Source: a virus. From it: a stretch of DNA of 32,780 bases. The notes below the pieces were generated by a model that ran no database searches, was not told the origin of the DNA, and saw only the letters and a program-made list of their open reading frames with translations. Below, piece after piece: positions 8,298 to 30,826 of this stretch (positions are counted from its first letter, which is position 1; every line of letters begins with the position of its first letter). The position numbers were made by a program, and so were the translations under genes. The DNA is taken from UHGV virus genome UHGV-0305798; one strand, given 5' to 3'.

Positions 8298-9977
8298 ATG
8301 GCGGAAACAACTAAAGAGCGATTGAACAAACAGTTCGCACAACTTGAAAGCGAGCGTCAGTCGTTCGAGCCGCACTGGCGCGAGTTGAGTGATTACATCA
8401 ACCCGCGTGGTTCCCGCTTTCTGACTTCTGAGGTCAACCGTAACGATCGACGCAATACACGCATTATTGATTCGACCGGGACTATGGCGGCGCGCACTCT
8501 CGCCAGCGGCATGATGTCAGGCATCACAAGCCCTGCGCGTCCGTGGTTTCGCCTGGCTACGCCAGATCCTGAAATGATGGATTATGGTCCTGTTAAGTTG
8601 TGGCTCGAGGCGGTGCAGAACCGCATGAACGATATGTTCAATAAGTCGAATCTCTACCAGTCTCTTCCGCAGTTATACGGAAGCCTCGGCACATACAGCA
8701 CTGGTGCAATGGCGGTGCTGGAGGATGACGAGGACATCATTCGCACAATGCCATTCCCGATAGGCAGTTACTACCTGGCTAACTCACCTCGTGGCAGTGT
8801 GGACACCTGTTTTCGCAAGTTCTCTATGACTGTTCGTCAGCTTGTTCAGGAGTTCGGGCTAAATAACGTCAGCGAATCCGTAAAAAGCATGTGGGAAAGC
8901 GGCACCTACGAGAAGTGGATTGACGTGATGCATTCGGTTTACCCGAACATTGACCGCGATACATCGAAGCTGGATAGCAAGAACAAGCCATTCAAATCGG
9001 TTTATTACGAGGTTGGTGGCGATAACGACAAGTTGTTGCGTGAGTCCGGATTTGATGAGTTTCCAATTATGGCTCCGCGCTGGGAAGTTAATGGCGAAGA
9101 TGTTTATGGATCATCATGCCCGGGTATGCTGGCGCTTGGACCTGTTAAGGCATTGCAGCTTCTCCAGAAGCGCAAGTCGCAGTTGATTGATAAAGCCACC
9201 AATCCGCCGATGGTTGCTCCGACTTCCCTCAAGAATCAGCGCGCCTCCCTTCTTCCTGGCGACATCACGTATATCGATCAGATTACTGGTCAGGATGGTT
9301 TCAGGCCTGCTTATCTGGTTAACCCCAGTACAGCAGATCTGGTAGCAGACATTCAGGACACTCGTCAAATCATTAACAGCGCCTACTTTGTCGATCTGTT
9401 CATGATGTTGCAGAACATCAATACCCGCTCGATGCCTGTTGAAGCGGTGATCGAAATGAAAGAAGAAAAACTTCTGATGTTGGGGCCGGTTCTGGAGCGT
9501 CTGAACGACGAATGTCTTAACCCTCTCATTGACCGCGCTTTCTCGATGATGGTGCGTAAAAACATGCTGCCGCCACCGCCTGACGCGATGGAAGGTATGC
9601 CCCTGAAGGTCGAATACATTTCCGTCATGGCTCAGGCGCAGAAGTCTATCGGCCTGTCCAGTCTGGCGTCCACGGTTAACTTCATTGGTCAACTTGCGCA
9701 AGCGAAACCAGAAGCTCTCGACAAACTCAACGTTGATCAGGCGATCGATGCATTCGCTGATATGTCCGGAGTGTCTCCAACCGTCATTGTTCCGCAGGAA
9801 CAGGTTGAGCAGGCTCGCCAGCAACGGGCACAGCAACAACAGCAGCAACAAATGATGGCGATGGGGATGGCGGCGGCACAGGGTGCCAAGACGCTAAGCG
9901 AAGCTAAAACTTCGGATCCGAGTGTTTTGTCAGCTATGGCGAATGCAGTTAGTGGTCAGGGTGGGCAATCACAATGA
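8298..9977 (+). CDS. portal (head-to-tail connector) protein, T7 gp8-like
   Basis: 559 aa; position after terminase; Gln/Ala/Met-rich C-terminal tail (QQQQQQMMAMGMAAAQGA) resembles the T7 gp8 C-terminus (recall-based). Confidence 0.8.
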   Translation: MAETTKERLNKQFAQLESERQSFEPHWRELSDYINPRGSRFLTSEVNRNDRRNTRIIDSTGTMAARTLASGMMSGITSPARPWFRLATPDPEMMDYGPVKLWLEAVQNRMNDMFNKSNLYQSLPQLYGSLGTYSTGAMAVLEDDEDIIRTMPFPIGSYYLANSPRGSVDTCFRKFSMTVRQLVQEFGLNNVSESVKSMWESGTYEKWIDVMHSVYPNIDRDTSKLDSKNKPFKSVYYEVGGDNDKLLRESGFDEFPIMAPRWEVNGEDVYGSSCPGMLALGPVKALQLLQKRKSQLIDKATNPPMVAPTSLKNQRASLLPGDITYIDQITGQDGFRPAYLVNPSTADLVADIQDTRQIINSAYFVDLFMMLQNINTRSMPVEAVIEMKEEKLLMLGPVLERLNDECLNPLIDRAFSMMVRKNMLPPPPDAMEGMPLKVEYISVMAQAQKSIGLSSLASTVNFIGQLAQAKPEALDKLNVDQAIDAFADMSGVSPTVIVPQEQVEQARQQRAQQQQQQQMMAMGMAAAQGAKTLSEAKTSDPSVLSAMANAVSGQGGQSQ

Positions 9978-10976: not shown

Positions 10977-11969
10977 ATGACAATGGCTGTTAAAGGCTTA
11001 ACTGCGCTAACGCTGGCTGACTGGGGTAAGCGCGTCGATCCAAACGGGAAAGTCGATAAGATTATCGAGCTTCTCGGTCAAACTAACCCGATCCTTCAGG
11101 ATATGCCTTTTGTCGAAGGGAACCTTCCTACCGGACACCGAACCACCATTCGTTCTGGTTTACCTTCAGCTACCTGGCGTTTGCTGAACTATGGTGTACA
11201 GCCAAGCAAATCAACCACAGTGCAGGTCACCGATTCCGTTGGCATGCTGGAAACCTATGCTGAAGTCGATAAGTCACTGGCTGATCTGAACGGTAATACC
11301 GCCGAATTCCGCCTGTCTGAAGACCGCGCATTTATTGAAGCGATGAATCAGCAGATGGCGCAGACACTGTTTTATGGTGATTCCAGCGTTAACCCTCAGC
11401 AGTTTATGGGACTGTCCTCCCGCTATTCCAGCCTGTCTGCGGGTAATGCTCAGAACATCATTGATGCTGGTGGCACGGGTACAGATAACACCTCAATCTG
11501 GTTAGTGGTGTGGGGCGAAAACACCGTGCATGGCATCTTCCCGAAAGGGCAGAAGGCTGGCATCCAGATGGAAGATAAAGGCCAGGTGACACTGGAAGAT
11601 GCTAATGGCGGCAAGTACGAAGGCTATCGCACCCATTACAAATGGGACAACGGACTTGCTCTGCGTGACTGGCGTTATGTTGTTCGCATTGCAAACATCG
11701 ATGTCAGCAATCTTTCAGAACCTTCCTCTGCCGCAAATATTGCGAAGTTGATGGTTAAAGCACTGCATCGCATTCCAAACCGTGGAATGGGTCGCCCGGT
11801 GTTCTACATGAACCGCACTGTAGGCCAGGCTCTTGATCTGCAATCTCTGGAGAAAACATCTCTGGCGATCAGCGTAAAAGAGACAGAAGGCGAGTGGTGG
11901 ACTTCATTCCGTGGTGTACCAATCCGTGAAACTGATGCGCTTCTGGAAACAGAAGCCCGTGTGGTGTAA
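10977..11969 (+). CDS. major capsid protein (putative)
   Basis: 330 aa immediately after scaffold, preceded by GAGAGGAA; alternative ATG at 10983 has better spacing. Call rests on gene order and size. Confidence 0.7.
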   Translation: MTMAVKGLTALTLADWGKRVDPNGKVDKIIELLGQTNPILQDMPFVEGNLPTGHRTTIRSGLPSATWRLLNYGVQPSKSTTVQVTDSVGMLETYAEVDKSLADLNGNTAEFRLSEDRAFIEAMNQQMAQTLFYGDSSVNPQQFMGLSSRYSSLSAGNAQNIIDAGGTGTDNTSIWLVVWGENTVHGIFPKGQKAGIQMEDKGQVTLEDANGGKYEGYRTHYKWDNGLALRDWRYVVRIANIDVSNLSEPSSAANIAKLMVKALHRIPNRGMGRPVFYMNRTVGQALDLQSLEKTSLAISVKETEGEWWTSFRGVPIRETDALLETEARVV

Positions 11970-13466: not shown

Positions 13467-15937
13467 TGGCTATCAGTTGGATCCAGCCCAGCTTTGCCGG
13501 TGGTGAGATTGGACCGTCGTTGTACGGTCGTATCGACATGGCGAAGTACCAGGTGGCATTGCGCAAGTGCGATAACTTTATCGTGCGGCAGTATGGCGGC
13601 GTTGAGAATCGACCTGGTACGCGTTTTGTCGGTGCCGCCAAATACCCAAATCGGAAATGCCGCCTGATCCCGTTCCAGTTCTCGACGGTTCAGACCTATG
13701 CTCTGGAGTTCGGACACCAGTACATGCGCGTTATCAAAGATGGTGCGTTGGTGCTGAACAGCAGCAATGTTATTTATGAAATTGCCACGCCATATACTGA
13801 AGCCGATCTGTACCGAATTAAATTCACGCAAAGCGCAGACGTGCTTACGCTGGTTCATCCGGCATACCCGCCGAAAGAGTTGCGCCGCTATGCGCATGAC
13901 AACTGGCAACTGGTTGATGTGGTAACGAAGAACGGGCCATTTGAAGATATCAATATTGACGATTCAGTGACGGTTTATGCCAGCGCCAGCACCGGGACAA
14001 TTACGTTAACGGCAAGCGCCTCAATTTTTGGCGCGGAGCAGGTAGGCAAATTGTTCTATCTGGAACAGCCTGCAGTGGATTCTGTGCCGGTATGGGAAAC
14101 CAGTAAGAGTACGTCGATTGGCGATATTCGCCGTGCAGACAGTAACTACTATCGCGCCGTTACAGCAGGCAAAACAGGCACTTTGCGCCCTTCGCATACA
14201 GAAGGCACATCATGGGATGGCTGGGGCGGATCCGGTGATGATGATACCGGCATTGAGTGGGAGTATCTGCACAGTGGTTTTGGCATTGCCCGTATCTCTG
14301 CTGCAAATGGAACTACTGCAACTGCCGAGGTGATTTCCTATATCCCTTCGCAGGTAGTTGGCGAGGATAATGCCAGCTATAAATGGGCTAAATATGCCTG
14401 GAACAGTATTAACGGTTATCCTGGCACTGTTGTTTATTATCAACAACGCCTTTACTTCGCCGCATCGACTGCGTTCCCTCAGACTATCTGGGCCAGCCGT
14501 ACCGGGGATTATAAGGATTTTGGCAAAAGCAATCCTACGCAGGATGACGACAGAATTATCTACACCTATGCCGGGCGTCAGGTTAATGAGATCCGTCACC
14601 TGATTGATGTTGGTTCGCTGGTGGCGCTGACTTCCGGAGGTGAGTACGTCATCACTGGCGACCAGAACAAAGTGCTTACCCCATCATCATTTGCATTCAG
14701 CTCTCAGGGATCAAATGGCTCGAGCAATGTCCCACCAATTGCCGTGGCGAATATTGCTCTGTTCGTCCAGGAGAAAGGCAGTGTTGTCCGTGATCTGGCC
14801 TACTCATTCGATGTTGACGGCTATCAGGGGAACGACCTGACCATCCTTGCCAATCATCTTTTTCAGAAGCACAGCATTGTTGACTGGTGCTTCTCGATTG
14901 TCCCTTACTCCAGCGCCTTCTGCATTCGTGATGACGGTAAATTACTGGTGATGACCTATTTGCGTGATCAGCAGGTTTTTGCATGGGCACCACAATCCAG
15001 TACCGGAAAATATGAAAGCACATGCAGTATCAGCGAAGGCAATGAAGATGCGGTGTATTTCGTCGTTAACCGAACCGTTAACGGGCAAACAGTGAGATAC
15101 ATAGAGCGACTGTCCAGCCGTTTATTTACCAGCGATGAAGATGCTTTCTTTGTTGATTCTGGCCTTAGCTATGATGGAAGAAATACGTCTGACAGAACGA
15201 TGATCGTCACTGGTGGTTCTGGCGAATGGGATTACCGCGCGGAATATACAATCAGTGTTTCTGGTGGTGCGTACTTCACCAGTAGTGATGTCGGTGCTCA
15301 ACTACAGTTCCCTTATACCGGAACTGATCCTGATACTGGCGATGAAGTGTCAAAAGAATTACGTTGCGACATCATTTCTGTAACCAGCAATACCGCTGTA
15401 GTGGTTCGTGCTAACAGGAACGTCCCGCCATCCCTCAGGAATGTGGCTACCACGAACTGGCAGATGGCGCGCCGGACATTTGGAGGCCTGTCTCATCTTG
15501 AAGGCCAGACCGTAAACATTCTCTCTGATGCGAACGTGGAACCACAGAAAGTGGTTTCCGGAGGTGCCGTCACGCTGGAATCACCTGGGGCTGTTGTGCA
15601 CATCGGCCTGCCAATAACTGCTGAATTCGAAACACTGGATATCAACATTAACGGACAGGAAACGCTGCTGGACAAAAAACAGGTGATCCCCTCCGTTACT
15701 CTGGTTGTGAATGCCAGTCGCGGCATCTGGGCGACTACGCCCGGCGGTAAATGGTACGAATATCCACAGCGTGAATTCGAGTTCTACGATGATCCTGTTG
15801 ATGATGCTACCGGAAAAGTAGAAGTGAAACTGGACAGTAACTGGGGCAAAAACGGACGTGTAAGAATCCGTCAGCTTGACCCGTTGCCGCTGTCTGTTCT
15901 TGCCGTTATTCCTCGCCTTACTGTTGGGGGATTCTGA
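13466..15937 (+). CDS. tail tubular protein B-like (nozzle), T7 gp12-like
   Basis: 823 aa; an internal block (FAASTAFPQTIWASRTGDYKDFGKSNPTQDDDRIIYTY...LVALTSGGEYVITG) resembles the conserved region of T7 gp12 (recall-based). Confidence 0.65.
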   Translation: MAISWIQPSFAGGEIGPSLYGRIDMAKYQVALRKCDNFIVRQYGGVENRPGTRFVGAAKYPNRKCRLIPFQFSTVQTYALEFGHQYMRVIKDGALVLNSSNVIYEIATPYTEADLYRIKFTQSADVLTLVHPAYPPKELRRYAHDNWQLVDVVTKNGPFEDINIDDSVTVYASASTGTITLTASASIFGAEQVGKLFYLEQPAVDSVPVWETSKSTSIGDIRRADSNYYRAVTAGKTGTLRPSHTEGTSWDGWGGSGDDDTGIEWEYLHSGFGIARISAANGTTATAEVISYIPSQVVGEDNASYKWAKYAWNSINGYPGTVVYYQQRLYFAASTAFPQTIWASRTGDYKDFGKSNPTQDDDRIIYTYAGRQVNEIRHLIDVGSLVALTSGGEYVITGDQNKVLTPSSFAFSSQGSNGSSNVPPIAVANIALFVQEKGSVVRDLAYSFDVDGYQGNDLTILANHLFQKHSIVDWCFSIVPYSSAFCIRDDGKLLVMTYLRDQQVFAWAPQSSTGKYESTCSISEGNEDAVYFVVNRTVNGQTVRYIERLSSRLFTSDEDAFFVDSGLSYDGRNTSDRTMIVTGGSGEWDYRAEYTISVSGGAYFTSSDVGAQLQFPYTGTDPDTGDEVSKELRCDIISVTSNTAVVVRANRNVPPSLRNVATTNWQMARRTFGGLSHLEGQTVNILSDANVEPQKVVSGGAVTLESPGAVVHIGLPITAEFETLDININGQETLLDKKQVIPSVTLVVNASRGIWATTPGGKWYEYPQREFEFYDDPVDDATGKVEVKLDSNWGKNGRVRIRQLDPLPLSVLAVIPRLTVGGF

Positions 15938-16401
15938 TGATCGACGTTCAAATTATTCCCGCTACCGAAGAGCATCTTCAGATGATTTTGCCGGATATTC
16001 GTCAGGCTGATATTGAAGAACTGTATGCGGTATCGCTGATGACTACCGAAGATGCACTGCGTGTTGGCCTGCGTACTGCGACTATGGCCTGGTCAGGGTT
16101 CGCGAACGGAGAACTGGTAACCATGTTTGGTGTATCTCCGGCGTCAATGATCGGTGGCAATGGTACGCCCTGGCTGGTAGGAACCAGCCGTATTGAAAAA
16201 TATCAGAAGACATTTCTTCGCCACTGCCACCCTGTATTGCGGCAGATGCTGGCAGTTTATCCGCGCCTGGAAAACTACGTCGACGAGCGAAACCATGTTG
16301 CCAAAGCATGGCTCCACTGGCTTGGATTCAGGCTTGAAGAAGCCGCGCCTTATGGTGCTCTTGGTCTTAATTTCCACAGATTTCACATGGAGAGAAAATA
16401 A
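15937..16401 (+). CDS. hypothetical virion-module protein (154 aa; gp13 position)
   Basis: ATG overlaps upstream stop; lies between the gp12-like and gp14-like genes. Confidence 0.45.
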   Translation: MIDVQIIPATEEHLQMILPDIRQADIEELYAVSLMTTEDALRVGLRTATMAWSGFANGELVTMFGVSPASMIGGNGTPWLVGTSRIEKYQKTFLRHCHPVLRQMLAVYPRLENYVDERNHVAKAWLHWLGFRLEEAAPYGALGLNFHRFHMERK

Positions 16402-16976
16402 TGTGCGATCCGGTTATTGCTGGTGGCGCAATGCTCGCCATGAGTGGCATTCAGGCATACACCCAGTACCAACAGGGAAAGTATGCCTCGAAGGTTGCAG
16501 AAGCGAACGCAGATATAGCCACAGCTCAGGCAAATGATGCAATAAACAGGGGTAACGCTGAAGCTGAGCAACGACGCAGAGAGACCCGACAGCGGCTTGG
16601 TACACAGGCGGCGACAATGGGGGCTACCGGCGCTGATTTATCTACAGGTAACGCGCTGGATATATTTGGCGACACTGCCCAGTTTGGCGCTCTTGATTCG
16701 CTGACGACGGTGAATAACGCGCAACGCGAGGCTTACGGTTATCAGGTTCAGGCTGCCAACTATAAAGCAGAAGCCAGTTCAGCCCGTAAACAGGGGAATG
16801 TGGGAGCAGCAACAACATTGCTCACTGCGCCTCTGAAGGCATACGGTGCGTACCAGATGTTTGGTGGGACGTGGAGTCCGTTCTCTAAAGGAAGTACATC
16901 TAGTGGTGGGACGCCAATGTTATCTAACTCAGGTTTTATGAATTCTGACTCCCGATTCAAAATAGGAGGTTACTGA
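16401..16976 (+). CDS. internal virion protein B-like (T7 gp14-like)
   Basis: 191 aa starting MC..., Ala/Gln-rich N-terminal region like T7 gp14; positioned before two giant core-protein genes. Confidence 0.55.
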   Translation: MCDPVIAGGAMLAMSGIQAYTQYQQGKYASKVAEANADIATAQANDAINRGNAEAEQRRRETRQRLGTQAATMGATGADLSTGNALDIFGDTAQFGALDSLTTVNNAQREAYGYQVQAANYKAEASSARKQGNVGAATTLLTAPLKAYGAYQMFGGTWSPFSKGSTSSGGTPMLSNSGFMNSDSRFKIGGY

Positions 16977-19723
16977 TGCCTGTTGTTCCTACTACATCCG
17001 GACGCCAGGTGCAAAGTCGTGGTGTGCAAACCGGTGGTTTTCAGACCTTCGATGTTCCTCAAGCAGGTCAGGTGCTGGCGAATGTCGCAGATCAGTATGC
17101 GGTGGCATATGGTGAAGCTAGGCAGAAAGCGAATGTTGCTATGGCCCAGGAGGCGTTACTGCAATTTAACCAATTTGCAGATGACCAGATTAACAACCCT
17201 GAAAATGGGCTGATTTCTAAACAGGGTAAAAACGCTCTTGGTCAGAGTGACGCTGTTATGAAAAATATGCAGGAAAGGGCTCAGGCATTATTAGGCTCAA
17301 TTCCTGAAAGTGAGGAAAGGAATAAATTATCCTTTCAACTCCAGCAGTCTATGCAGTCTTATTACAATCAGGCACGTCGATATGAAGTTGGGCAGTTTCA
17401 GCAATTCCAAGATCAAACGTATTTGTCAGGAAATGCATTGGCTGTCACTCAGTCTGCGGGGCTATATAGCGATAACCAAGCATTTGTCGATTTAGCCAAG
17501 CAGCGATTTGAATCTATTGATCAATACGCTGATGCGCATGGGCTTCCTGATGAGTGGCGTGTTCAGCAGAAAACTCAGCTCAAGGAACAAATGGGGCAGC
17601 AAGCATGGATAGGAAATATCGCTCAAAAATACAACGAGTTTCTTCAGGTTAATGGAGAGCCAGGGGATCTTGATGGTGTGAGTCGTGCAATATCACATGG
17701 TAATTCATTGGATGCTCGTGGTTTACGTAATAATAACCCTGGTAATATTGAAGCGAGCAAATCTAACCCGTGGGAAGGTCAGATCGGTAGTGATGGACGT
17801 TTTGCAACGTTTGCTACCCCTGAGCATGGAATCCGCGCGTTGGGTAAAAATATGTTGTCTTACCAGCGTCAAGGCTATGACACCGTTAGCGAGATTGTTA
17901 ATCGCTATGCTCCGGCTAGTGATGGTAATAATACTGATGCTTATATTAGGGCATTGTGTAGTGAGCTTGGTGTTGGGGAGAATGATCAGCTTGATATCTC
18001 TAACCCAAAGACACTAGCTGCTTTATGTGCTGGGATTATTAAACACGAAAATGGCAGTATGCCTTATAGCACCGAACAGCTTGAAACTGGTATCTCGGCA
18101 GCCCTTGGTCTAACTAACCTTGATTCACCTAAGCGTTATACGGGCAATGCGGCATTTGACGCTATGAGCCCTCAAATGCAAATACAGGCATTGAGGCAGG
18201 CTAATGAGCTGAGAAATCAGTACCGCCAGCAGTATGCGGACCAGCTTAGCACCGTAGTTAAAGATGCATATTCAGCCCTTGATGAAGGATTGAAACCTGA
18301 GAAGTTACCTTCTGAGGACGATTTTATCCGGGCCAATGGTCCGCGCATTGGCGCTATGAAGTGGAAGGATATGCAGGCGCAGATACAATATGGAGGTGTC
18401 ATTGGTGCCGCTAAAGACCTCACTCCAGAAGGACGACAAGACATTCTTGAACGTTTACGTCCACAGGATCCAAATGCTCCTGGATTTGCAGCTAACCAGC
18501 AACGCTGGGAGAAAATGCAGGCCAAATTTAAAGAGATGGATAGGGAGTGGGAGATTCAGCAGGGAAGAAACAGGTTCGTGTCTTCAATGCAAAATAACTT
18601 CCCGCTGGACCCTAACGACAAAAACAATCAGGCAGCGGTAGACCGTTATTTCGCGCAGGATATCGCGCCTTCGTTTTCCATATCTGATCCGCAGAGCATC
18701 AATACACTGGTCACCGTCACAACTAAAAGCGGCATGATACCAACTCAGGTTAAAACAATGCTTAACAGTGGAGCAACATCAAGAGATCCTGCGCTGGTTG
18801 TCCCGATGGCAAAATTCTACGGTCAGTTATTCGATAATAATCCGGCGGCAGCGGCAACACTTGATAAAAGTACGATGGCATTTTACGGCAAGGTTTACGA
18901 TTATTCCCGCGCTGGCGTGCCGGAGGATAAGGCTGTTGATATGGCTTACAGCCAGGTGTTCCAACAGGATGACCGAATGAAACAGATGCTTTCCACTGCC
19001 ATGCGAGACAAAAAATATGTCGCGGCGAGGGCAACTGCTGCACAAAATAACGCCAGCAGTCTGACTTCCTTTGGTTCGTGGTCTCCGGATATTACCGATC
19101 CAGGAAAATCAAATGCGGCCTATCAGCGAGATTACCAGACAATTTACGATGCTAACTTTGTACAGACAGGTGGCGATGCAGAACAGGCTGAGAAAATGAC
19201 CAATGCCATGATCAGAACCACCTGGGGAGTTTCTACAGTTAATGGCAAAGCAGAGGTTATGAAGTATGCACCTGAGGCATTGTACGGAGTAAATAATGGT
19301 GCTGGTAACTGGATACAGGGGCAGTGGGAGCAGGAAAAACGCGAGCTTAAATCAAAATCCTTTGGCGGTCCTCGCAGTGATACGGACTTAATACTTGTTT
19401 CTGATGGCCTTACGGCAAGGGATAGGAGTTATGCTGTTATGGTTTTACAGCCTGACGCAAACGGAGCGATAGAACCGAGAAATTATATTGGAGAAAATGG
19501 TCTCCCTGTTCGTTTCAAGCCGGATCAGCTGACATCTCCAATGTACAGGCAAACCATTCAGTTCCAGCAACAGCGTGTTGATGAGGCTAGAGTGCGGAGA
19601 GAAGGCAATCCGCTGCCGCAGTTCAGCAATAAAGATGGATATACTCCTCCAGATCTGACCAAACCATTCGGTTATGGTTCAGCCAATTACCTTCCGAGCA
19701 ATATATACGCAGGGGGCAAATAA
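16976..19723 (+). CDS. internal core protein C-like (gp15 position), 915 aa
   Basis: Large ORF in the gp15 slot with tight overlaps to neighbours; contains a distinctive block (RGLRNNNPGNIEASKSNPWEGQ...VNRYAP) that may be a catalytic or cell-wall-interacting domain. Confidence 0.6.
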   Translation: MPVVPTTSGRQVQSRGVQTGGFQTFDVPQAGQVLANVADQYAVAYGEARQKANVAMAQEALLQFNQFADDQINNPENGLISKQGKNALGQSDAVMKNMQERAQALLGSIPESEERNKLSFQLQQSMQSYYNQARRYEVGQFQQFQDQTYLSGNALAVTQSAGLYSDNQAFVDLAKQRFESIDQYADAHGLPDEWRVQQKTQLKEQMGQQAWIGNIAQKYNEFLQVNGEPGDLDGVSRAISHGNSLDARGLRNNNPGNIEASKSNPWEGQIGSDGRFATFATPEHGIRALGKNMLSYQRQGYDTVSEIVNRYAPASDGNNTDAYIRALCSELGVGENDQLDISNPKTLAALCAGIIKHENGSMPYSTEQLETGISAALGLTNLDSPKRYTGNAAFDAMSPQMQIQALRQANELRNQYRQQYADQLSTVVKDAYSALDEGLKPEKLPSEDDFIRANGPRIGAMKWKDMQAQIQYGGVIGAAKDLTPEGRQDILERLRPQDPNAPGFAANQQRWEKMQAKFKEMDREWEIQQGRNRFVSSMQNNFPLDPNDKNNQAAVDRYFAQDIAPSFSISDPQSINTLVTVTTKSGMIPTQVKTMLNSGATSRDPALVVPMAKFYGQLFDNNPAAAATLDKSTMAFYGKVYDYSRAGVPEDKAVDMAYSQVFQQDDRMKQMLSTAMRDKKYVAARATAAQNNASSLTSFGSWSPDITDPGKSNAAYQRDYQTIYDANFVQTGGDAEQAEKMTNAMIRTTWGVSTVNGKAEVMKYAPEALYGVNNGAGNWIQGQWEQEKRELKSKSFGGPRSDTDLILVSDGLTARDRSYAVMVLQPDANGAIEPRNYIGENGLPVRFKPDQLTSPMYRQTIQFQQQRVDEARVRREGNPLPQFSNKDGYTPPDLTKPFGYGSANYLPSNIYAGGK

Positions 19724-22700
19724 TGCCGATATATGAACAGGATCCTAAAGAGTTGCTTGGCGAGGATATTCAGCAAATAGCAGCACCTGATGACAGTAAT
19801 TTCTATATGGAAACACCTTCTTTGCTTTCTGCTGTGAACCCATTTACCAGTGAGCAACGCGTTCAAAGGTCTAGACAAGCAGCATTTCGTATAGATAACA
19901 CGCTGGGTAGCTTTATTGCCAGTGCTCCTTTCAGTCAGTTTGACAGGGTTGAAGGATATAACCCATTTGATAACGATGCAGCAGATATTAAAGGCTATGA
20001 AGATTTTGCAGATTCGTTTATCAACTCCGGTTCGCATGAAGAAACAATGGCAATTAAACATCGAATCGATAAGCAAAGAACAGATAGAGAATATCTATCT
20101 GAAATGGGTGGTGCTGGTACTATTTCAAGCTTAGCAATGGGAATGATAGACCCGGTTAATGTGGCTGCAATGTTCATCCCTGTAGGGGCGGTAGCGCGTG
20201 GAGGAAGTATTGCTGAGACGGCAGGGCGTTTTGCCCTGGCGAATGCTGCTGGTGGGGGAGTATCAGAAGCCGCATTACAGGCCACTCAGGAAGCTCGCTC
20301 ACCGATGGAGAGCGTATCGAACGTTGTTGTTGATGCTCTCGTTGGTGGGATCCTTGGTGCTGGTGCACAGCTACTTGCTGGACCTAGCGCGCGCGAGGCA
20401 GTGGTTAACTCAGTAGGTAATCATTTGCGAGGTATGGATTCTCCTCAAAGCATTGGTGCAGCTCAGGTTTTCAATACCACACTCGATCAGGAACAGCTCG
20501 CTGGACTTGGACTTGCTAACAAAACGTTGAGTGTCACTCCTGCTGGCCGCTTGGCGCAATCACCATCTCTTGTCTCCCGTCAGATTAACCAGCAGCTTGC
20601 CGAAAATAACTATTTCTTCGCCAAAAATGATGAGGGGTTGGCTACGTTTACGGCAGTCGAGACTAAGATTAAGCAATACGACGCCATGCTTTATAAGCAG
20701 ATGGAAGCTACTCGTGATGCTTACCAGCAGTACAGCAAATCTGTCAGCGCCCGCGGCGTGAAGAGGATGAACTTTATTGATTTCAATGAAGCTGTTGGCA
20801 TGGCTATGCGCCGTGGTGATCAGAGTGATATTCCTGAGGTTTCACAAGCAGCCGCCAGAATCCGCCCCATTTTTGAGACCACAAAAGCCCGTATGCAGGA
20901 ATTGGGGATCCTTCCTGAGGATATCGATGTCGTGACGGCGAAGAGTTATCTTCCCCGCATTTATAAGTTCGATAAGATACTTTCCGACCGCACTGAATTC
21001 AGAGGGCGAATTGCCAACTGGATACAAGGGATTAGTGCCAAAGGTGCTGACAAAGCAGGTCAGCGAATTGAAAAGATAAATTCATTGCTAAAAACTGCAG
21101 AGGAATCAGCACCGCGCGCTGATGCTCTCGCTAGTGAAATCGCTGAAGCGGAGAAATGGTCTGGTAAAAAAATTCTACTCATGGAAGAACTGGATAAACG
21201 AAATAAGCTTATATCTCAGGAGACTGACACACAGGCGCGTCTTACAAGAATAGAAAAAGAGTTGGCCGAGACTTCATCAGAAAAACTTCAGGCAAGAATG
21301 ATGAAAGAAAGCTCTGACCTTAAAACACGCCTTGATGATATAGCGCAGGCAAAGAGTGAGCTTCCTGTCTATCAGCGCCATATGGAGTTGCTGGATAATC
21401 CACGGAAATATCGTTCTGAGCTTCGCCGACTGCAAAAACGGGCAAATTCAACCACAAGGCTGAATGCAAGCCGCGAGCGAGCACTGAAGCAGATGGAGCC
21501 TCTATCCCGAGAGGAAGCAGAGGACGCTGCTGACGAGATCGTGAATAAAATAATAGGCGCACCTTCCGGGCTTGTACCAGCCGATATTATCCCAGAGAGA
21601 CTCGTTGGTCGGGCTGGTTTCACTAAAAGCAGAACGCTGCTTATTCCTGATGAGCGTATAGAAGATTTTCTTGAATCAGATGTTAACTACATCATGGAAA
21701 GTTATCTCCGGCAGGTGGCACCAGAAATTGAGCTGACTGCGCAGTTTGGCCGTAAAGATATGGGGGAGCAAATCCGTCAGGTTAGTGAGGAATATACCCG
21801 GCTAATAAAAGAGGCTAAAACACCTAAACGACGTGCAGTTCTTGAGAAGCAACGGGAGGCTGATATTAGGGATATTACGGCTATGCGTGATCGACTGCTT
21901 GGTACTTACGGTGCACCTCAAGATCCACGCAGTTTCTTTGTTCGTGCCGGGCGAGTTGCTAGGAATATTAACTTCCTCCGTTTGCTTGGTGGAATGACTG
22001 TCTCCGCTGCAACTGATCTGATGCGACCGATGATGCAGCATGGCCTGAGAAAATCTCTCGGACCAATGGTAAGCATGCTTAAAAATATGGACTCAGTAAA
22101 AATTGCAACCAGGGATTTGCGAGAAATGGCAGTTGGGCTTGATTATGTCCTGTCTACGCGTACAAAGGCTATAGCGGATCTTACTGACCCCTATAGCCGG
22201 AGAAGCGCCGCTGAGCGAGGTCTGAACTGGATGACGCAGAAATTCGGTAACTGGACGCTGATGAATCAGTGGAACAGCGCACTTAAATCATGGTCTGGGA
22301 TGATAGTGCAGTCGAGGATACTTGACGCGGCTCGCCAAGTTTCTGCTGGTGGCACGCTCTCCAAAAGTGAAATGCGGAAGATGGCACAGGTCGGCATCAA
22401 TGAAGATGTTCTGCGCCGAATCGGGGAGCAATTCGGGAAGCACGGAGAGGATATGGACGGGCTGTTAACCGGGCATAGTCATCTGTGGGATGACCGTTTC
22501 GCTAGAGAGATTTTCCAGTCTGCAGTGCTGAAAGATGTAGACTCAGTGATTGTAACGCCTGGCGTAGGTGATACACCGCTGTTTTTTAGTAAAGAAGGCT
22601 GGAAGATGATCACGCAGTTCAAAACGTTTATCTTCGCACAGCATAACAGGGTGCTGGTATCTGGTATCCAGCAGGGCGATGCTGCATTCTATCTTGGTGC

Positions 22701-23112
22701 GCTTGGCACGATTGCGCTTGGCTCAATGGTCTATATGATGAAACAGAAGTTAAGCGGTCGCGATATCGACTACAGCTGGAATAACCTTGTGAAAGAGGGG
22801 ATCGACCGGGGCGGAATGCTTGGCTGGCTCTCTGAGCCGCTGAATACCGTTGAGAACATAAGCGGCGGTAGGTTTGGTCTTGGCGCGATGTTTGGTGCGC
22901 CTCCGGTATCAAGGTTTCAGAGTCGTAATGCTATTGGTGCTTTACTTGGTCCTACCTTTGATCTTGGCGGTGATGCCGCGACGGTTGCAAATGGTGTACT
23001 TAACGGAGAATTTGACAGCCAGCAAACCCACGCTGTCCGTAAAATGCTACCTTTTCAGAATCTGTGGGCGATATCACCATTACTAAATAAAGTTGAAGAG
23101 CAGATGAAATAG
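19723..23112 (+). CDS. internal core/ejection protein D-like (gp16 position), 1129 aa
   Basis: Largest ORF in the module, in the gp16 slot; long charged coiled-coil centre and Gly/Ala-rich hydrophobic segments. No transglycosylase motif recognised. Confidence 0.6.
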   Translation: MPIYEQDPKELLGEDIQQIAAPDDSNFYMETPSLLSAVNPFTSEQRVQRSRQAAFRIDNTLGSFIASAPFSQFDRVEGYNPFDNDAADIKGYEDFADSFINSGSHEETMAIKHRIDKQRTDREYLSEMGGAGTISSLAMGMIDPVNVAAMFIPVGAVARGGSIAETAGRFALANAAGGGVSEAALQATQEARSPMESVSNVVVDALVGGILGAGAQLLAGPSAREAVVNSVGNHLRGMDSPQSIGAAQVFNTTLDQEQLAGLGLANKTLSVTPAGRLAQSPSLVSRQINQQLAENNYFFAKNDEGLATFTAVETKIKQYDAMLYKQMEATRDAYQQYSKSVSARGVKRMNFIDFNEAVGMAMRRGDQSDIPEVSQAAARIRPIFETTKARMQELGILPEDIDVVTAKSYLPRIYKFDKILSDRTEFRGRIANWIQGISAKGADKAGQRIEKINSLLKTAEESAPRADALASEIAEAEKWSGKKILLMEELDKRNKLISQETDTQARLTRIEKELAETSSEKLQARMMKESSDLKTRLDDIAQAKSELPVYQRHMELLDNPRKYRSELRRLQKRANSTTRLNASRERALKQMEPLSREEAEDAADEIVNKIIGAPSGLVPADIIPERLVGRAGFTKSRTLLIPDERIEDFLESDVNYIMESYLRQVAPEIELTAQFGRKDMGEQIRQVSEEYTRLIKEAKTPKRRAVLEKQREADIRDITAMRDRLLGTYGAPQDPRSFFVRAGRVARNINFLRLLGGMTVSAATDLMRPMMQHGLRKSLGPMVSMLKNMDSVKIATRDLREMAVGLDYVLSTRTKAIADLTDPYSRRSAAERGLNWMTQKFGNWTLMNQWNSALKSWSGMIVQSRILDAARQVSAGGTLSKSEMRKMAQVGINEDVLRRIGEQFGKHGEDMDGLLTGHSHLWDDRFAREIFQSAVLKDVDSVIVTPGVGDTPLFFSKEGWKMITQFKTFIFAQHNRVLVSGIQQGDAAFYLGALGTIALGSMVYMMKQKLSGRDIDYSWNNLVKEGIDRGGMLGWLSEPLNTVENISGGRFGLGAMFGAPPVSRFQSRNAIGALLGPTFDLGGDAATVANGVLNGEFDSQQTHAVRKMLPFQNLWAISPLLNKVEEQMK

Positions 23113-23113
23113 G

Positions 23114-23965
23114 ATGAAAAAAATAAATTTGTTTTTTGGCATAGTGCTTTCAATAGTCTCTGTAAATCCTACAGCTGCCAGTTCATTGCAATGCAATAAG
23201 GATAACTTTGATGCATGCAAAACGTGCGAACAATTATCAAAGGCTATCGACTTAAAAGAACCTAATCGTGGCGATTACTATAGAGGGGCTTTATGGAATG
23301 GGCTTTACGCCTCTTATGTAATTAATTGCCCTGTGGTTGCAGAGAAGTTACTGAGCCATGGTGCTATACCATCATATGGCGGATATATGGGGTCTATGGG
23401 GGCGGTTCTGACAGGAAAATGGCCTCATAACAATGAATCAATAAATCTTTCATGGGCAGATTTGCTTATAAAACATGGATTTGATGTTAATAGGCATACG
23501 GGGAATTATAAATCAGCTACTGAAGTATGGGCTATAGATAAAAAACAGATTGAATATAAGTCAGTTTTTGACAAGTTAATTCAATCCAGCGAAGTAAAAC
23601 CACTCGATCCTTCAAGAAATTTAGAATGGTGTGCGTCTGAAGGGTATCGCTCAGTTGTCGTTTATTCCCTTAACTCATGTATAGAAAATGCTATAAAACG
23701 TTTGGATGACGGTGTTTCTTCAGCGTCTGATATTTCATCAGCAGCCGTAAATTCCTGTACTAGCGATGTAGAAAATTTCAATAAGCATTTGGCATGCAAA
23801 GCAGCTGTTAAAGAAAACTCTGATAAAGAGAGAAGCAACGTTTACCAGTTATTAACCAGTGATAGTCAAATGAATAAAAATGTTATTGATATGCTGAAGG
23901 AAAGAAATATTGAAACGGTTCTTGAATTTAGAGCTGAAAATCGATCAGCGAAAACTGCACAGTGA
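23114..23965 (+). CDS. AT-rich secreted protein (283 aa), accessory gene
   Basis: Sec-type signal peptide (MKKINLFFGIVLSIVSVNPTAAS), several Cys, and visibly lower GC than flanking genes (by eye); followed by a strong terminator. Confidence 0.6.
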   Translation: MKKINLFFGIVLSIVSVNPTAASSLQCNKDNFDACKTCEQLSKAIDLKEPNRGDYYRGALWNGLYASYVINCPVVAEKLLSHGAIPSYGGYMGSMGAVLTGKWPHNNESINLSWADLLIKHGFDVNRHTGNYKSATEVWAIDKKQIEYKSVFDKLIQSSEVKPLDPSRNLEWCASEGYRSVVVYSLNSCIENAIKRLDDGVSSASDISSAAVNSCTSDVENFNKHLACKAAVKENSDKERSNVYQLLTSDSQMNKNVIDMLKERNIETVLEFRAENRSAKTAQ

Positions 23966-24254: not shown

Positions 24255-24887
24255 TTAATGCAGTTTATCTTTGCTTATAACCAGTAGTCTGTGGGTATGC
24301 ACATCTTTATCACTGCCCCAACAGAAATCAGCCCACTGGCTATAGAAATCATCCCATGATGTCATGAAGCTAAGAGGTCTATCTTCTTCAGAGCCATCTG
24401 AAACGTATACATTATATCCTGGGGTGTTTATAGCCCAAGAAATCATTCTTTCCCAGAATCTTCTCCCATCGATTGTTTGTTGCTCATCAGATACAACGAT
24501 CGCATATTGCTCTAGGAAGAACTGAAAAAAAATCTGAGGCAAACCATGAACAGCACGGTCATGAATAACATTAGGCGTACGCCATACCATGATCTGCGTA
24601 CATGTTCTTTTGGCTTCGACGATATCTTCCCGAAAGATTAACTTAACCGCATACACCGTTTCTGGAGTATCGCTGGTAGTAATCATTCTGTAATGATCGC
24701 CATTACAAGATTTTACAAGGCGATAACCATAAGGTGTTGTGAATCCCGGAAGAACGAAATCAACCACACCTTTCGCTAAGTAGCTTTCGGTGTGACTAGT
24801 GTTCTTCTCAGACATGTTCAGTTTTCTATCGAAATCTGCTTCTGGGATAATGTATGGCATCGCTTTTCTTGTTGTATTTGTTCTCAT
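24255..24887 (-). CDS. hypothetical protein (210 aa), reverse-strand accessory gene
   Basis: ATG at 24887 preceded by GGGAGG at 5 nt; own terminator downstream and palindromic site upstream; AT-rich by eye; no family recognised. Confidence 0.6.
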   Translation of the reverse strand: MRTNTTRKAMPYIIPEADFDRKLNMSEKNTSHTESYLAKGVVDFVLPGFTTPYGYRLVKSCNGDHYRMITTSDTPETVYAVKLIFREDIVEAKRTCTQIMVWRTPNVIHDRAVHGLPQIFFQFFLEQYAIVVSDEQQTIDGRRFWERMISWAINTPGYNVYVSDGSEEDRPLSFMTSWDDFYSQWADFCWGSDKDVHTHRLLVISKDKLH

Positions 24888-24946
24888 TTCGTCCTCCCAT
24901 GTTTGGCTACAGGACGCGTTTTGAAGGGAAGATTAAAAATGCTTTC

Positions 24947-24961
24947 TTACCCTTGAGGTAA
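24947..24961. promoter_or_regulatory. palindromic site TTACC-CTTGA-GGTAA (copy C)
   Basis: Read directly; about 60 bp upstream of the 210-aa gene start. Confidence 0.4.
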
Positions 24962-24997
24962 TAGTACGCTATTCACCCCCAGTCTGCAATCTGTACA

Positions 24998-25025
24998 GAA
25001 TTATTTAAAGGCACATCCCTGTGCC
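24998..25025 (-). terminator. possible terminator (minus strand) after antirepressor gene
   Basis: Minus-strand GGCAC-agggat-GTGCC followed by TTTAAATAATT; moderate. Confidence 0.35.
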
Positions 25026-25033
25026 GCCGCCCG

Positions 25034-25726
25034 TCAGAAGAACCCTGCCTTGTCGTTGATGTACTCCGCGTGGGTCTGGATATCACGCAGGCATTTGCTC
25101 ACACCAACGATGTAGCAGAACATGGTGGTCAGCTCCGCCGCCGCGCCCGATACGTCGTGCCCGTCTTCCTGTAACTGGTTCAGCAGATTCATCAGCAGTG
25201 AGTTCTCCGTCAGGCCGAGAACACCAGACGGAGAATGAATCAGGCTGCGGTAGCCGGGCTTCAGCGGGGCGCTGTAGGTTTTGTTCTCTATCTTCATTGC
25301 CTGCATCACTGCTGATGCTGTGGCGTTTGCAACCTGGTCGGCAACCATCTTTATGCGTTCTTCCTGCGGGAGCGAGTTTTTAATGTAACTTCCGGTGCGG
25401 CGGATCTGAGGAAGAACCTCACCTGTAACCCATTCAAGAAATCTGAATGCTCTCGTTCCCTCAGTCATTGCCTCTTTGCAACGCAGAATAAGGATGTAGA
25501 GACCTGATTCTGAAACGATGGATAGTTCTTGTATTCCACCAGGGGTCTGTATTGAATACAGCCCCTTTTTGTTCCAGCCTTTTTTATCAAGTTTTCTCGC
25601 TTGTGTAACATCAATATTCAAAGCATTGCACACATCTTTGGTGACAAACCAAGGTTCTCCGTCAATCATGAACATACGGATCTGGCAGGATGACTCAAAG
25701 GAAAAGATGGAAGGTTTGGTATTCAT
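25034..25726 (-). CDS. Bro-N domain antirepressor-like protein
   Basis: N-terminus (MNTKPSIFSFESSCQIRMFMIDGEPWFVTKDVCNALNI) matches the BRO-N signature of phage antirepressors; start at 25726 after AAAGGTGA (the ORF-track start 25771 adds 15 aa). C-terminal 70 aa are paralogous to the small gene at 26040..26297. Confidence 0.75.
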   Translation of the reverse strand: MNTKPSIFSFESSCQIRMFMIDGEPWFVTKDVCNALNIDVTQARKLDKKGWNKKGLYSIQTPGGIQELSIVSESGLYILILRCKEAMTEGTRAFRFLEWVTGEVLPQIRRTGSYIKNSLPQEERIKMVADQVANATASAVMQAMKIENKTYSAPLKPGYRSLIHSPSGVLGLTENSLLMNLLNQLQEDGHDVSGAAAELTTMFCYIVGVSKCLRDIQTHAEYINDKAGFF

Positions 25727-25880
25727 GGCGATCACCTTTGTAGTTAGGTTAATCACCACCGCTGAGACCAATCAGATGGTGGTGAACTGTGCAGAGTTGG
25801 TCTTACCGGCTACAAAGGAACCCGGCGCACCTTTCGGTGCCCCCACACAGCCCACCATAGAATAGGTGCGCTTTACACAT

Positions 25881-29028: not shown

Positions 29029-29433
29029 ATGTCATTCCAACTAACCAATGAAACTTCAAATCAGTGGCTTAGTGTTAGTTCTCTTGCTGCGGTTATTGCA
29101 GGTGTCCCTCCGGAGGTTGCTTTAGGGGCTTTGGCTGGGGCGGTAATTTTTGTTACCTCTGCAGTAGAGTACCCCATCCGTCGCCGGGTGCTCCTGTCGA
29201 TGCTCAGCTTTCTTTGCGGCCTTCTCTTTTACAAACCAGCAGCATCAATTCTTATCGGCATAGCCAGCCTGATCCCTACCATCACGCAGGACTCTTTTGA
29301 AAAAGGGATTGTTTTCTCTGCAGGCGCATTCGTGTCAGCAATTGTCGCTGTGCGTATTGGTATATGGCTCTATCACCGTTCCGATAATCCACGCGAGTTA
29401 ATTCCGGGGAGAAAAGACGATGGTAACGCATGA
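29029..29433 (+). CDS. membrane protein (134 aa), holin-like
   Basis: Several hydrophobic helices; first gene of the lysis cassette; stop overlaps the next gene. Confidence 0.5.
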   Translation: MSFQLTNETSNQWLSVSSLAAVIAGVPPEVALGALAGAVIFVTSAVEYPIRRRVLLSMLSFLCGLLFYKPAASILIGIASLIPTITQDSFEKGIVFSAGAFVSAIVAVRIGIWLYHRSDNPRELIPGRKDDGNA

Positions 29434-29728
29434 GTTTTTTTTGCTTATCACCAATGCAGTTATTTGCACTGGCATAGCAATTCGCGTTGTCACATTCCGG
29501 CGTAACGGCTCTCAACATCGAAGGTGGGGAGGATGGCTTGCTTATTTCCTGATTGTTGCTGCGGCCAGTATTCCTGTTCGAGTCGCCTATGCAATCTGGT
29601 TACGCACGCCAATGGCTGTGGATTTATCTGAGGTCATTATCAACGCTGTCATGCTTGCTGCGGTTCTTAAAACTCGCGGTAACGTCGTTCAGATTTTCAA
29701 GATAACGAGGTCTAAACATGGAGATTAA
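29420..29728 (+). CDS. membrane protein (102 aa), putative holin
   Basis: Three predicted transmembrane segments and a charged C-terminus; directly upstream of the endolysin. Confidence 0.5.
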
Positions 29729-30347
29729 ACAATTCCAGCGAGCTGCTGGTATTAGCGAGGCGCTGGCCGCACGCTGGTTCTCGCATATAACTTCTGCGAT
29801 GAAAGAGTTTGGTATCAGCAAAGCAGAAGATCAGGCAATGTTTATTGCTCAAGTCGGGCATGAGTCTGGGGGCTTCACCAGGTTGCAGGAGAATTTCAAC
29901 TACAGTGTCAGCGGACTGGCTAACTTCGTTCGGGCTGGGCGTCTCACTCAGGGGCAGGCTAATGCACTGGGGCGCCGTGCTGGTGAACCACCATTGCCAC
30001 TTGAGCGCCAGCGCGCGATCGCAAATCTGGTATACAGCAAACGCATGGGGAACAATGCCCCTGGTGATGGCTGGAATTACCGAGGGCGCGGACTTATCCA
30101 GATTACCGGTTTGAATAACTATCGTGATTGCGGAAACGGTCTGAAGGTTGACCTGCTGGAGAGCCCTGAACTGCTGGCGCAGGACGAATATGCGGCTCGT
30201 AGCGCGGCGTGGTTCTTCGCCAGCAAAGGATGCATGAAGTATACCGGCGATATTGCACGTGTAACTCTGATTATCAATGGTGGCCGGAACGGCATCGACG
30301 ACCGGCGCGCGCGGTACATCGCTGCCAGTAAGGTGCTGGCGGTATGA
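29718..30347 (+). CDS. endolysin, glycoside hydrolase family 19 (chitinase-like) type
   Basis: Motifs [12 protein letters not shown] and [16 protein letters not shown] are characteristic of GH19-type phage endolysins (recall-based); sits between holin-like genes and Rz. Confidence 0.8.
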
Positions 30348-30826
30348 TCTGGGCATTCGTAAAAGCATACCGGAAACAGTTGATTATCATGGCGGTGCTT
30401 GCTGTTCTGGTCATATCAGGAGTTGCTGCCTGGAGTGTACACGGCAGTCGTCAGTACGACGCCGGGTATGCGCAGGCGAAAGAAGACCGCAAAACCGAAG
30501 ATGAGAGAATTCGTCAGCACTACGAACAGGAGAAAGCGATCAATGAACGTGAAGCGCAGCAGAGGATCGACCAGGCGCGCAATGATGCTCTTGATGCTGC
30601 CGCTCGCGCTGGCCGGTTGCAGCAACAGCTCGTTGCCATCCGTGAGCAGCTCAGGCAGTATAACGCCATTGTCGGCGCTGGGACGTCAGCCGCAGACACC
30701 GGAGTTTTGCTTGCCGACGTGCTCAGTAAATCTCTCGAGAGAAACAGACAACTGGCAGAGTATGCTGACCGGGCAGCCGAAGCCGGAAGAGTCTGTGAAA
30801 AACAGTACGACACCCTGACCAGATAG
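30344..30826 (+). CDS. Rz-like inner-membrane spanin (i-spanin)
   Basis: N-terminal transmembrane helix then a long charged coiled coil; overlaps the endolysin stop (ATGA); contains an embedded lipoprotein ORF in the +1 frame. Confidence 0.75.
30582..30818 (+). CDS. Rz1-like outer-membrane lipoprotein spanin (o-spanin), embedded in Rz
   Basis: The +1 frame inside Rz encodes [17 protein letters not shown]..., a lipoprotein signal with lipobox LAGC followed by a Pro/Ser-rich segment. Start placed at the first ATG before the signal peptide; the longer ORF 30399..30818 is probably not translated from its first codon. Confidence 0.6.
   Translation: MMLLMLPLALAGCSNSSLPSVSSSGSITPLSALGRQPQTPEFCLPTCSVNLSRETDNWQSMLTGQPKPEESVKNSTTP

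Follow-up and report, generated by a model that had tools for sequence, protein, structure and literature searches.

A probable Enc34-type peptidoglycan glycosidase domain in the middle of a gp15-like ejection protein of a temperate phage

We analyzed a viral DNA stretch of 32,780 nucleotides (UHGV virus genome UHGV-0305798; hereafter called the window, whose positions are used throughout), in which one forward-strand open reading frame (ORF) codes for an internal virion protein of 915 amino acids (aa) at the gene position of T7 gp15. The conserved central block of this protein is very probably the catalytic domain of an Enc34/PHA02564-type virion-associated peptidoglycan glycosidase, embedded in a gp15-like ejection protein. 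An earlier note, made from the sequence alone, had supposed that 17711-18060 might encode an enzymatic or cell-wall-interacting domain; matches in the PDB and the residues of the active site support this supposition, and from them we infer the catalysis itself. The gene and the elements of the domain are the following.

16976..19723, forward strand: gp15-position internal virion (ejection) protein, 915-aa ORF
17714..18103, forward strand: Enc34/PHA02564-type lysozyme-like enzymatically active domain, residues 247-376
17726..17749, forward strand: RNNNPGNI motif, residues 251-258, the N-terminal signature of the family
17906..17908, forward strand: Tyr311 in NRYAP, counterpart of Enc34 Trp79 (substrate-positioning aromatic) by the 7q47 alignment
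17942..17944, forward strand: Tyr323 in TDAYI, counterpart of Enc34 Tyr95
18047..18049, forward strand: Glu358 in KHENG, counterpart of the catalytic Glu131 of Enc34, aligned to the glutamate of HENGS in 7q47

A conserved central domain of the Enc34 type

The in-frame translation of 17711-18060 (+) is DARGLRNNNPGNIEASKSNPWEGQIGSDGRFATFATPEHGIRALGKNMLSYQRQGYDTVSEIVNRYAP...GIIKHENGS, which exactly matches the peptide quoted in the earlier note and corresponds to residues 246-361 of the 915-aa ORF. This range includes the codon of the catalytic Glu358, but its end at 18060 cuts off the last helix; the folded domain continues to about residue 376, near position 18103. The other figure given there, residues about 240-370, was accurate for a domain that occupies residues 247-376. 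The conserved look of the block also holds in an alignment of 35 full-length homologues (from Klebsiella, Salmonella, Serratia, Yersinia, Proteus, Providencia and others, sharing 35-88% identity with the query), where 32 of the 54 invariant columns are found within residues 247-376, that is, within 130 of the 915 residues (odds ratio 11, Fisher p ~1e-15). For the 21 homologues showing less than 50% overall identity, the block is 62% identical, while the N- and C-terminal parts reach 34% and 42%, respectively. A second alignment contained the domain alone and comprised 59 sequences. Well over a thousand homologues of the 915-aa protein occur in Enterobacterales genomes, presumably in prophages. 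Two close homologues (77% identity over the domain and 57% over the full length) are labelled Clostridium perfringens in NCBI/UniRef, probably because of contaminated or mislabelled assemblies, since all other close relatives come from Enterobacterales. An alternative-frame ORF overlapping the block (17685-18017, +, 110 aa) was rejected as a chance ORF, since it lies inside a strongly conserved coding frame.

When the PDB was searched with phmmer, residues 247-362 matched the Enc34 endolysin's catalytic domain (7q47_A, E 2.8e-15), and residues 247-399 matched residues 3-150 of a 1295-aa protein named "Gp29" (9vvp_L, E 3.9e-35). The block also matches the PHROG families phrog_873 and phrog_7182, which are lysin domains. 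The search for a hydrolase fold that the earlier note had proposed as a check, naming the lack of any match as the outcome that would count against its idea, thus returned a hydrolase family, represented by PDB 7Q47 and 9VVP. The predicted fold of the domain is compact and mainly helical and superposes on 7Q47 in the model. The domain is an all-helical relative of the alpha-lobe of lysozyme, inserted between N- and C-terminal helical modules. Neither Pfam-A nor NCBIfam assigned a family to the 915-aa protein or to the domain taken alone, the only match being a sub-threshold one to GA_3; these collections have no model for the Enc34/PHA02564-type domain, and the identification was therefore made through the PDB sequence search and PHROGs. 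Pfam SLT (PF01464) gave no match at E <= 1 in the 915-aa protein or in the 1129-aa protein encoded downstream, under conditions where T7 gp16 (E 1.7e-31) and gp37 of phage TL-2011b (E 3.6e-7) were detected as positive controls.

Lysis of E. coli, P. aeruginosa and H. alvei with permeabilised outer membranes was shown for the Enc34 domain (CDD PHA02564), in the form of ORF39 without its C-terminal transmembrane domain; its active site consists of the catalytic Glu131 with Trp79 and Tyr95 as conserved partners, and a GH73-like N-acetylglucosaminidase mechanism has been proposed (PMC8943055). M4Lys, another characterised member, degraded purified peptidoglycan and released N-acetylglucosamine (GlcNAc) when its transmembrane domain was absent (PMC7143992). 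In the 915-aa protein, the counterpart of Glu131, Glu358, lies on the last core helix; it is invariant in both the domain alignment (as E119 in domain numbering) and the full-length alignment, and it is present in every divergent homologue inspected. Tyr323 is likewise invariant in both alignments (Y84 in domain numbering). Position 311 is aromatic throughout, and RWAP or RYAP is kept in the closest 120 full-length homologues with the exception of one truncated sequence. As for the RNNNPGNI motif, which is also found in Enc34 and Gp29, the full-length alignment shows no variation at N252, N253, N254, P255, G256 and N257, and the domain alignment shows little or none at R, N, N, P, G and N.

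The carrier protein and its neighbours

The 915-aa protein is composed of a helical N-terminal module (residues ~1-230), the central muralytic domain, and a helical or mixed C-terminal module (residues ~400-877), and it matches phrog_1044 over its full length (E 0). An AlphaFold2 model of the full-length protein (predicted local distance difference test, 78.8; predicted template-modelling score, 0.46) is mostly helical, and the part outside the domain is predicted to be so as well, in agreement with the "otherwise helical core protein" of the earlier note. The domain appears in the model as a separate globule between low-confidence linkers at residues 241-250 and ~377-391. When the full model was compared with the PDB by Foldseek, the four best matches were all T7 gp15: 7k5c_A (the periplasmic tunnel), 9jyy_G, 6yt5_A and 7eyb_A, with E-values of 2.6e-4 to 3.9e-3 and probabilities of 0.85-1.0 but global TM-scores of only 0.12-0.19. 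The gene stands between a T7_gp14-family gene upstream and a phrog_342 gene, of the T7 gp16 family, downstream; the neighbourhood is as follows.

15937..16401, forward strand: gp13-position internal virion protein, 154 aa; phrog_308 internal virion protein, E 5.5e-62
16401..16976, forward strand: gp14-like internal virion protein, 191 aa; Pfam PF24072 T7_gp14, E 4.4e-8, above the curated cutoff; phrog_418 internal virion protein, E 1e-72
19723..23112, forward strand: gp16-like internal virion protein, 1129 aa; phrog_342, E 2.7e-235

The gp13-position protein matches Pfam Phage_T7_Gp13 only weakly (E 0.047, under the cutoff), and the gp14-like protein may, by analogy, be the outer-membrane component of the ejectosome. 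The name "gp15-like" is thus supported by gene position and by the local structure of a predicted model, not by sequence.

Several points weigh against reading the block as a catalytic domain within a gp15-like protein. On the side of the carrier, the low global TM-scores to T7 gp15 mean that "gp15-like" denotes gene order together with a local-structure match; sequence homology to T7 gp15 was not demonstrable when the full-length alignment was compared by hhalign (E 0.051, probability 1%), phmmer of the 915-aa protein against the PDB returned no gp15 chain, and the PHROG families differ (phrog_1044 for the 915-aa protein and phrog_1339 for T7 gp15). On the side of the domain, the bond specificity of the family is unsettled, the M4Lys data having pointed to both glucosaminidase and endopeptidase activities (PMC8943055), and the counterpart of Trp79 is Tyr here, whereas it is Trp in most homologues.

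That substitution would also fit a domain that is catalytically weak or inactive and mainly serves as a peptidoglycan-binding anchor fixing the periplasmic tunnel to the wall, a "cell-wall-interacting" role that the earlier note had allowed. Lytic activity may not be strictly required in this phage group: Moak and Molineux are said to have described viable T7 gp16 transglycosylase mutants in 2000, with a delay at low temperature and in stationary-phase cells, whose walls are highly cross-linked. Such an anchor is nevertheless unlikely. The catalytic Glu and Tyr323 are invariant in 35 of 35 full-length homologues and 59 of 59 domain homologues, no other part of the 915-aa protein is as conserved as the block, and a sibling phage, described below, has SLT, another catalytic module, at the same position.

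If the block is a catalytic domain, where does this leave the gp16-like protein? The earlier note had found no muralytic motif in it, and indeed the protein matches neither Pfam SLT nor a profile of the Enc34-type domain, which gave a single match in a six-frame scan of the whole window. Residues 21-1129 of the gp16-like protein align to positions 192-1227 of the phrog_342 profile, while T7 gp16, a phrog_342 member, aligns with its residues 1-1315 to positions 4-1227 and carries Pfam SLT at residues 15-127. Because BLASTP found no significant similarity between the gp16-like protein and T7 gp16 (best E 0.78) and phmmer against the PDB gave no match for either the gp14-like or the gp16-like protein, the assignment of these two proteins rests on Pfam and PHROG profiles. 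The three ejection proteins have lengths of 191, 915 and 1129 aa (2235 aa in total), compared with 196, 747 and 1318 aa (2261 aa) in T7, so that the difference from T7 is +168 aa in the gp15-position protein and -189 aa in the gp16-like one. These lengths are consistent with the redistribution of one domain.

The suggestion that the activity had "moved" to the gp15-like protein therefore stands in one part and falls in another: the activity would reside in the gp15-like protein, but the SLT domain of T7 itself was not relocated, as the domain found here belongs to a different family. Judged from the sequences, the Enc34-type family is distinct from SLT and has no recognisable similarity to it, and "activity resides in gp15" is a more accurate wording than "domain moved". 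In T7, SLT is found in gp16 and the 747-aa gp15 has no enzymatic domain; the role proposed for the two domains is the same, namely local cleavage of peptidoglycan during assembly of the ejectosome.

Related phages and other carriers of the domain

The gene for the 915-aa protein is 99.5% identical between the window and Escherichia phage EC.W1-9 (PP445227), an unclassified temperate podovirus (Caudoviricetes) of E. coli having an integrase, a repressor, RecT and lambda-like replication genes. A gene for a phage RNA polymerase was seen neither in EC.W1-9 nor in the window. Of 5,426 complete E. coli genomes, 119 have an 801-bp stretch of the gene on the chromosome with an identity of at least 99%, and there the product is almost always called "hypothetical protein". 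Because EC.W1-9 has an integrase and a repressor, because no RNA polymerase gene is seen, and because the gene is chromosomal in these 119 genomes, the phage of the window is temperate and is placed outside Autographivirales.

A sibling phage, TL-2011b, shows the same scaffold with another domain. Its gp37 (905 aa; NC_019445, 7981-10698), named "lytic transglycosylase" or "endolysin", shares the scaffold of the 915-aa protein (BLASTP E 4e-105): the first 60 residues are ~95% identical, both proteins are full-length members of phrog_1044, the gene order is the same, and a muralytic domain is found at the central position in both. In the central region of about residues 230-400, however, no meaningful alignment between the two was obtained. 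TL-2011b gp37 has there Pfam SLT (GH23 lytic transglycosylase; residues 263-342, E 3.6e-7) and gives no match to the profile of the Enc34-type domain, which is the type present in the window protein. That one position holds either of two dissimilar glycan-cleaving domains would be hard to explain unless the job of the position is cleavage of the cell wall, and the pair looks like the result of a recent domain exchange between related temperate phages. Small Vibrio podophages with the same C-terminal scaffold have this protein annotated as "putative lytic transglycosylase".

The Enc34-type domain itself is widespread, being found by tblastn in 808 phage records. It makes up stand-alone lysis enzymes in Chivirus, Enc34-like phages and Mu-like Pseudomonas phages, and it also occurs in "P5"-type proteins of membrane-containing Vinavirales, in microviruses, and in proteins annotated as tape-measure or tail proteins. 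The characterised members, ORF39 of Hafnia phage Enc34 and M4Lys of Salmonella phage BSPM4, are ~26-kDa stand-alone lysis enzymes, each with a transmembrane domain at the C terminus, and their genes lie in the lysis cassettes of siphoviruses. Unlike them, the window domain lies within a podovirus ejection protein of 915 aa, and the lysis cassette of that phage uses a GH19 enzyme.

The closest solved relative of the window domain lies in gp16 of Kayfunavirus (K1F-like, Studiervirinae; PDB match E 3.9e-35, and 45-49% identity by tblastn to Kayfunavirus copies), where the first ~150 residues of gene 16 are the Enc34-type domain at the place of the SLT of T7. The source of the PDB 9VVP "Gp29" chain was deduced by tblastn of the aligned segment, which showed up to 99% identity to Kayfunavirus gene 16; a literature search for a publication on 9VVP found unrelated papers only. 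Gene 16 of Citrobacter phage CR44b (NC_023576, 4501-8388) encodes 1295 aa, the same length as Gp29, with the domain in the first ~149 residues, and its GenBank record notes detection of the product by mass spectrometry. RefSeq names this product "internal virion protein with endolysin domain". Kayfunavirus thus resembles the window in carrying the Enc34-type domain on a T7-type internal virion protein of the ejectosome; it differs in that the domain is N-terminal in the gp16 homologue, the inner-membrane component, whereas in the window it is central in the gp15-position protein. GP11 of NO16 is another virion protein with an Enc34-type fold (PMC13552765). Since both the CR44b gene 16 product and NO16 GP11 are found in virions, an entry-associated use of the domain has precedent.

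Lysins borne on ejection proteins are an established principle (reviewed in PMC5380687). In phiKMV gp36 and Ar-KM gp42, a lysozyme domain is part of the periplasmic tunnel protein, which is gp15-like (PMC5380687; bioRxiv 10.64898/2026.05.18.726046), and that of Ar-KM gp42 is predicted to face outward at about the height of the T7 gp16 transglycosylase (bioRxiv 10.64898/2026.05.18.726046). The phiKMV-type domain is C-terminal and T4-lysozyme-like, whereas the window domain is central and of the Enc34 type. The same preprint distinguishes three placements of the lytic domain, namely N-terminal in gp16, C-terminal in gp15, and central in gp15 "around residue 300", the last being "restricted to Dunnvirinae"; the combined length of the three proteins of the window (2235 aa) lies within its range of 2378 +/- 162 aa. 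With residues 247-376 of 915, the window domain has the central placement, but its nearest phage, EC.W1-9, is an unclassified temperate member of Caudoviricetes and not one of the Dunnvirinae. In a member of that subfamily, Agrobacterium phage Atu_ph02 (Atuphduovirus), the tunnel protein has Pfam Hydrolase_2 at 240-358 and Peptidase_M15 at 388-474, and its scaffold compared with our family alignment gave no significant match by hhalign (E 0.056). We propose, tentatively and with somewhat less than even confidence, that the position of residues ~230-400 in this gp15-position family is a reloadable slot for wall-cutting domains, which takes up the Enc34 type or SLT, with an analogous case in the SleB-type and M15 domains of Dunnvirinae.

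The domain family and its activity, ejection-protein-borne lysins, the placement in gp15-like proteins, and the lysin labels given to the scaffold family in PHROG and GenBank are already described. New are the central position of an Enc34-type domain in a gp15-position protein, its occurrence in a lineage of temperate Enterobacterales phages outside Autographivirales, and the exchange of domain type with an SLT-bearing sibling phage, together with an annotation absent from NCBI records. A function can thus be assigned to a product that the NCBI pipeline leaves hypothetical in the 119 E. coli genomes, a label due to the lack of a Pfam-A or NCBIfam model in spite of the 808 phage records. In an emerging picture, the wall-cutting module of podovirus ejectosomes is shuffled between gp15- and gp16-type proteins, and a fourth domain family and a temperate lineage outside Autographivirales now join this picture. 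If the assignment is true, the central configuration extends beyond the Dunnvirinae, to which the Ar-KM preprint restricted it. EC.W1-9 and TL-2011b form a clean natural pair for asking whether the choice of domain matters. If the domain is an N-acetylglucosaminidase like M4Lys, a T7-type ejectosome would cut the bond between GlcNAc and N-acetylmuramic acid (MurNAc), unlike the lysozymes and lytic transglycosylases described so far, which act on the MurNAc-GlcNAc bond. Engineering of Enc34-type domains into enzybiotics that target Gram-negative bacteria is under way; copies borne on ejection proteins may need to unfold to exit the capsid and then to refold, and they may therefore provide robust variants, as in the case of phiKMV gp36C.

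Proposed role at entry, lysis genes and genomic setting

By analogy with T7 and phiKMV-like phages, the 915-aa protein would be packaged, along with the gp14-like and gp16-like proteins, in the capsid core, stacked on the portal. On infection it would be ejected through the portal and tail and rebuilt with them as a channel crossing the envelope, in which it would form the periplasmic part of the DNA conduit, as the gp15-like protein forms the periplasmic tunnel in T7- and phiKMV-like ejection (bioRxiv 10.64898/2026.05.18.726046). Several copies of the muralytic domain per particle would then sit on the tunnel at the level of the cell wall and cleave glycan strands locally, with Glu358 as the putative general acid and Tyr323 and Tyr311 positioning the sugar. 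The bond cut is probably GlcNAc-(1,4)-MurNAc, which by homology with M4Lys would make the domain an N-acetylglucosaminidase, and the cut in the wall would allow the conduit to reach the inner membrane. The presence of the protein in the virion, its ejection, the copy number and height of the domain, its bond specificity and its catalysis are all inferred.

Use of the domain at entry has to be weighed against use from within at the end of infection. The window has a lysis cassette of its own, the assignment of which is also backed by the annotation of EC.W1-9.

29029..30826, forward strand: lysis cassette with two holins, a GH19-type endolysin and a DUF2514 spanin
29029-29433 and 29420-29728, forward strand: holins, Pfam Phage_holin_8 and Phage_holin_3_7
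29718-30347, forward strand: GH19-type endolysin, Pfam Glyco_hydro_19, phrog_181 endolysin
30344-30826, forward strand: spanin, Pfam DUF2514

Because of this separate holin, GH19 and spanin cassette, the domain in the gp15-like protein is not needed as a lysis endolysin, and its candidacy as the phage's own lysis endolysin was rejected. A late, perhaps auxiliary, endolysin function would agree with the PHROG label of phrog_1044 ("endolysin", category "lysis") and with the fact that the characterised members, Enc34 ORF39 and M4Lys, are true lysis endolysins. It is nonetheless very improbable: besides the complete cassette with its GH19 endolysin, the domain is not stand-alone and has no adjoining holin, but lies inside a 915-aa protein encoded in a block of internal-virion-protein genes, and Kayfunavirus carries the domain on gp16, a virion protein. 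The PHROG label "endolysin" is best read as "virion-associated lysin". Still less credible is a role of the block in the structure or assembly of the capsid core, unrelated to the cell wall, in which case it would share only a helical fold with Enc34.

The structural module of the window has the order portal, protease, major capsid protein, tail tubular proteins, gp13-position protein, gp14-like protein, 915-aa protein and 1129-aa protein, of which the first members are these.

8298-9977, forward strand: portal, Pfam Head-tail_con (PF12236), T7 gp8 type
Between portal and major capsid protein: protease, by PHROG match
10977-11969, forward strand: major capsid protein, Pfam PF20911 "Major capsid protein GP7"
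Between major capsid protein and gp13-position protein: tail tubular proteins, gp11- and gp12-like

In this structural module, ejection, portal and tail genes of the T7-like type stand beside a capsid protein from another family, in a temperate lambdoid genome without a phage RNA polymerase. Directly 3' of the gp16-like gene, an ORF of 283 aa (23114-23965, +) aligns along its whole length with phrog_6118, a family of unknown function, and gives no match in Pfam; it may encode a further virion or ejection component. A reverse-strand gene pair (24255-25771, -) lies between the ejection-protein block and the tailspike gene.

24255-24887, reverse strand: phrog_1349 protein of unknown function
25034-25771, reverse strand: anti-repressor, Ant-like

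This pair resembles the immI-like region, with an Arc-like repressor and Ant, at the matching place in TL-2011b. The tailspike (26494-28956, +, 820 aa) has a beta-helix region and, at its C terminus, a Peptidase_S74 intramolecular chaperone domain. At its place EC.W1-9, though otherwise near-identical, has a shorter protein annotated as "eliminase" (624 aa), so that the receptor-binding module appears to differ between the two phages.

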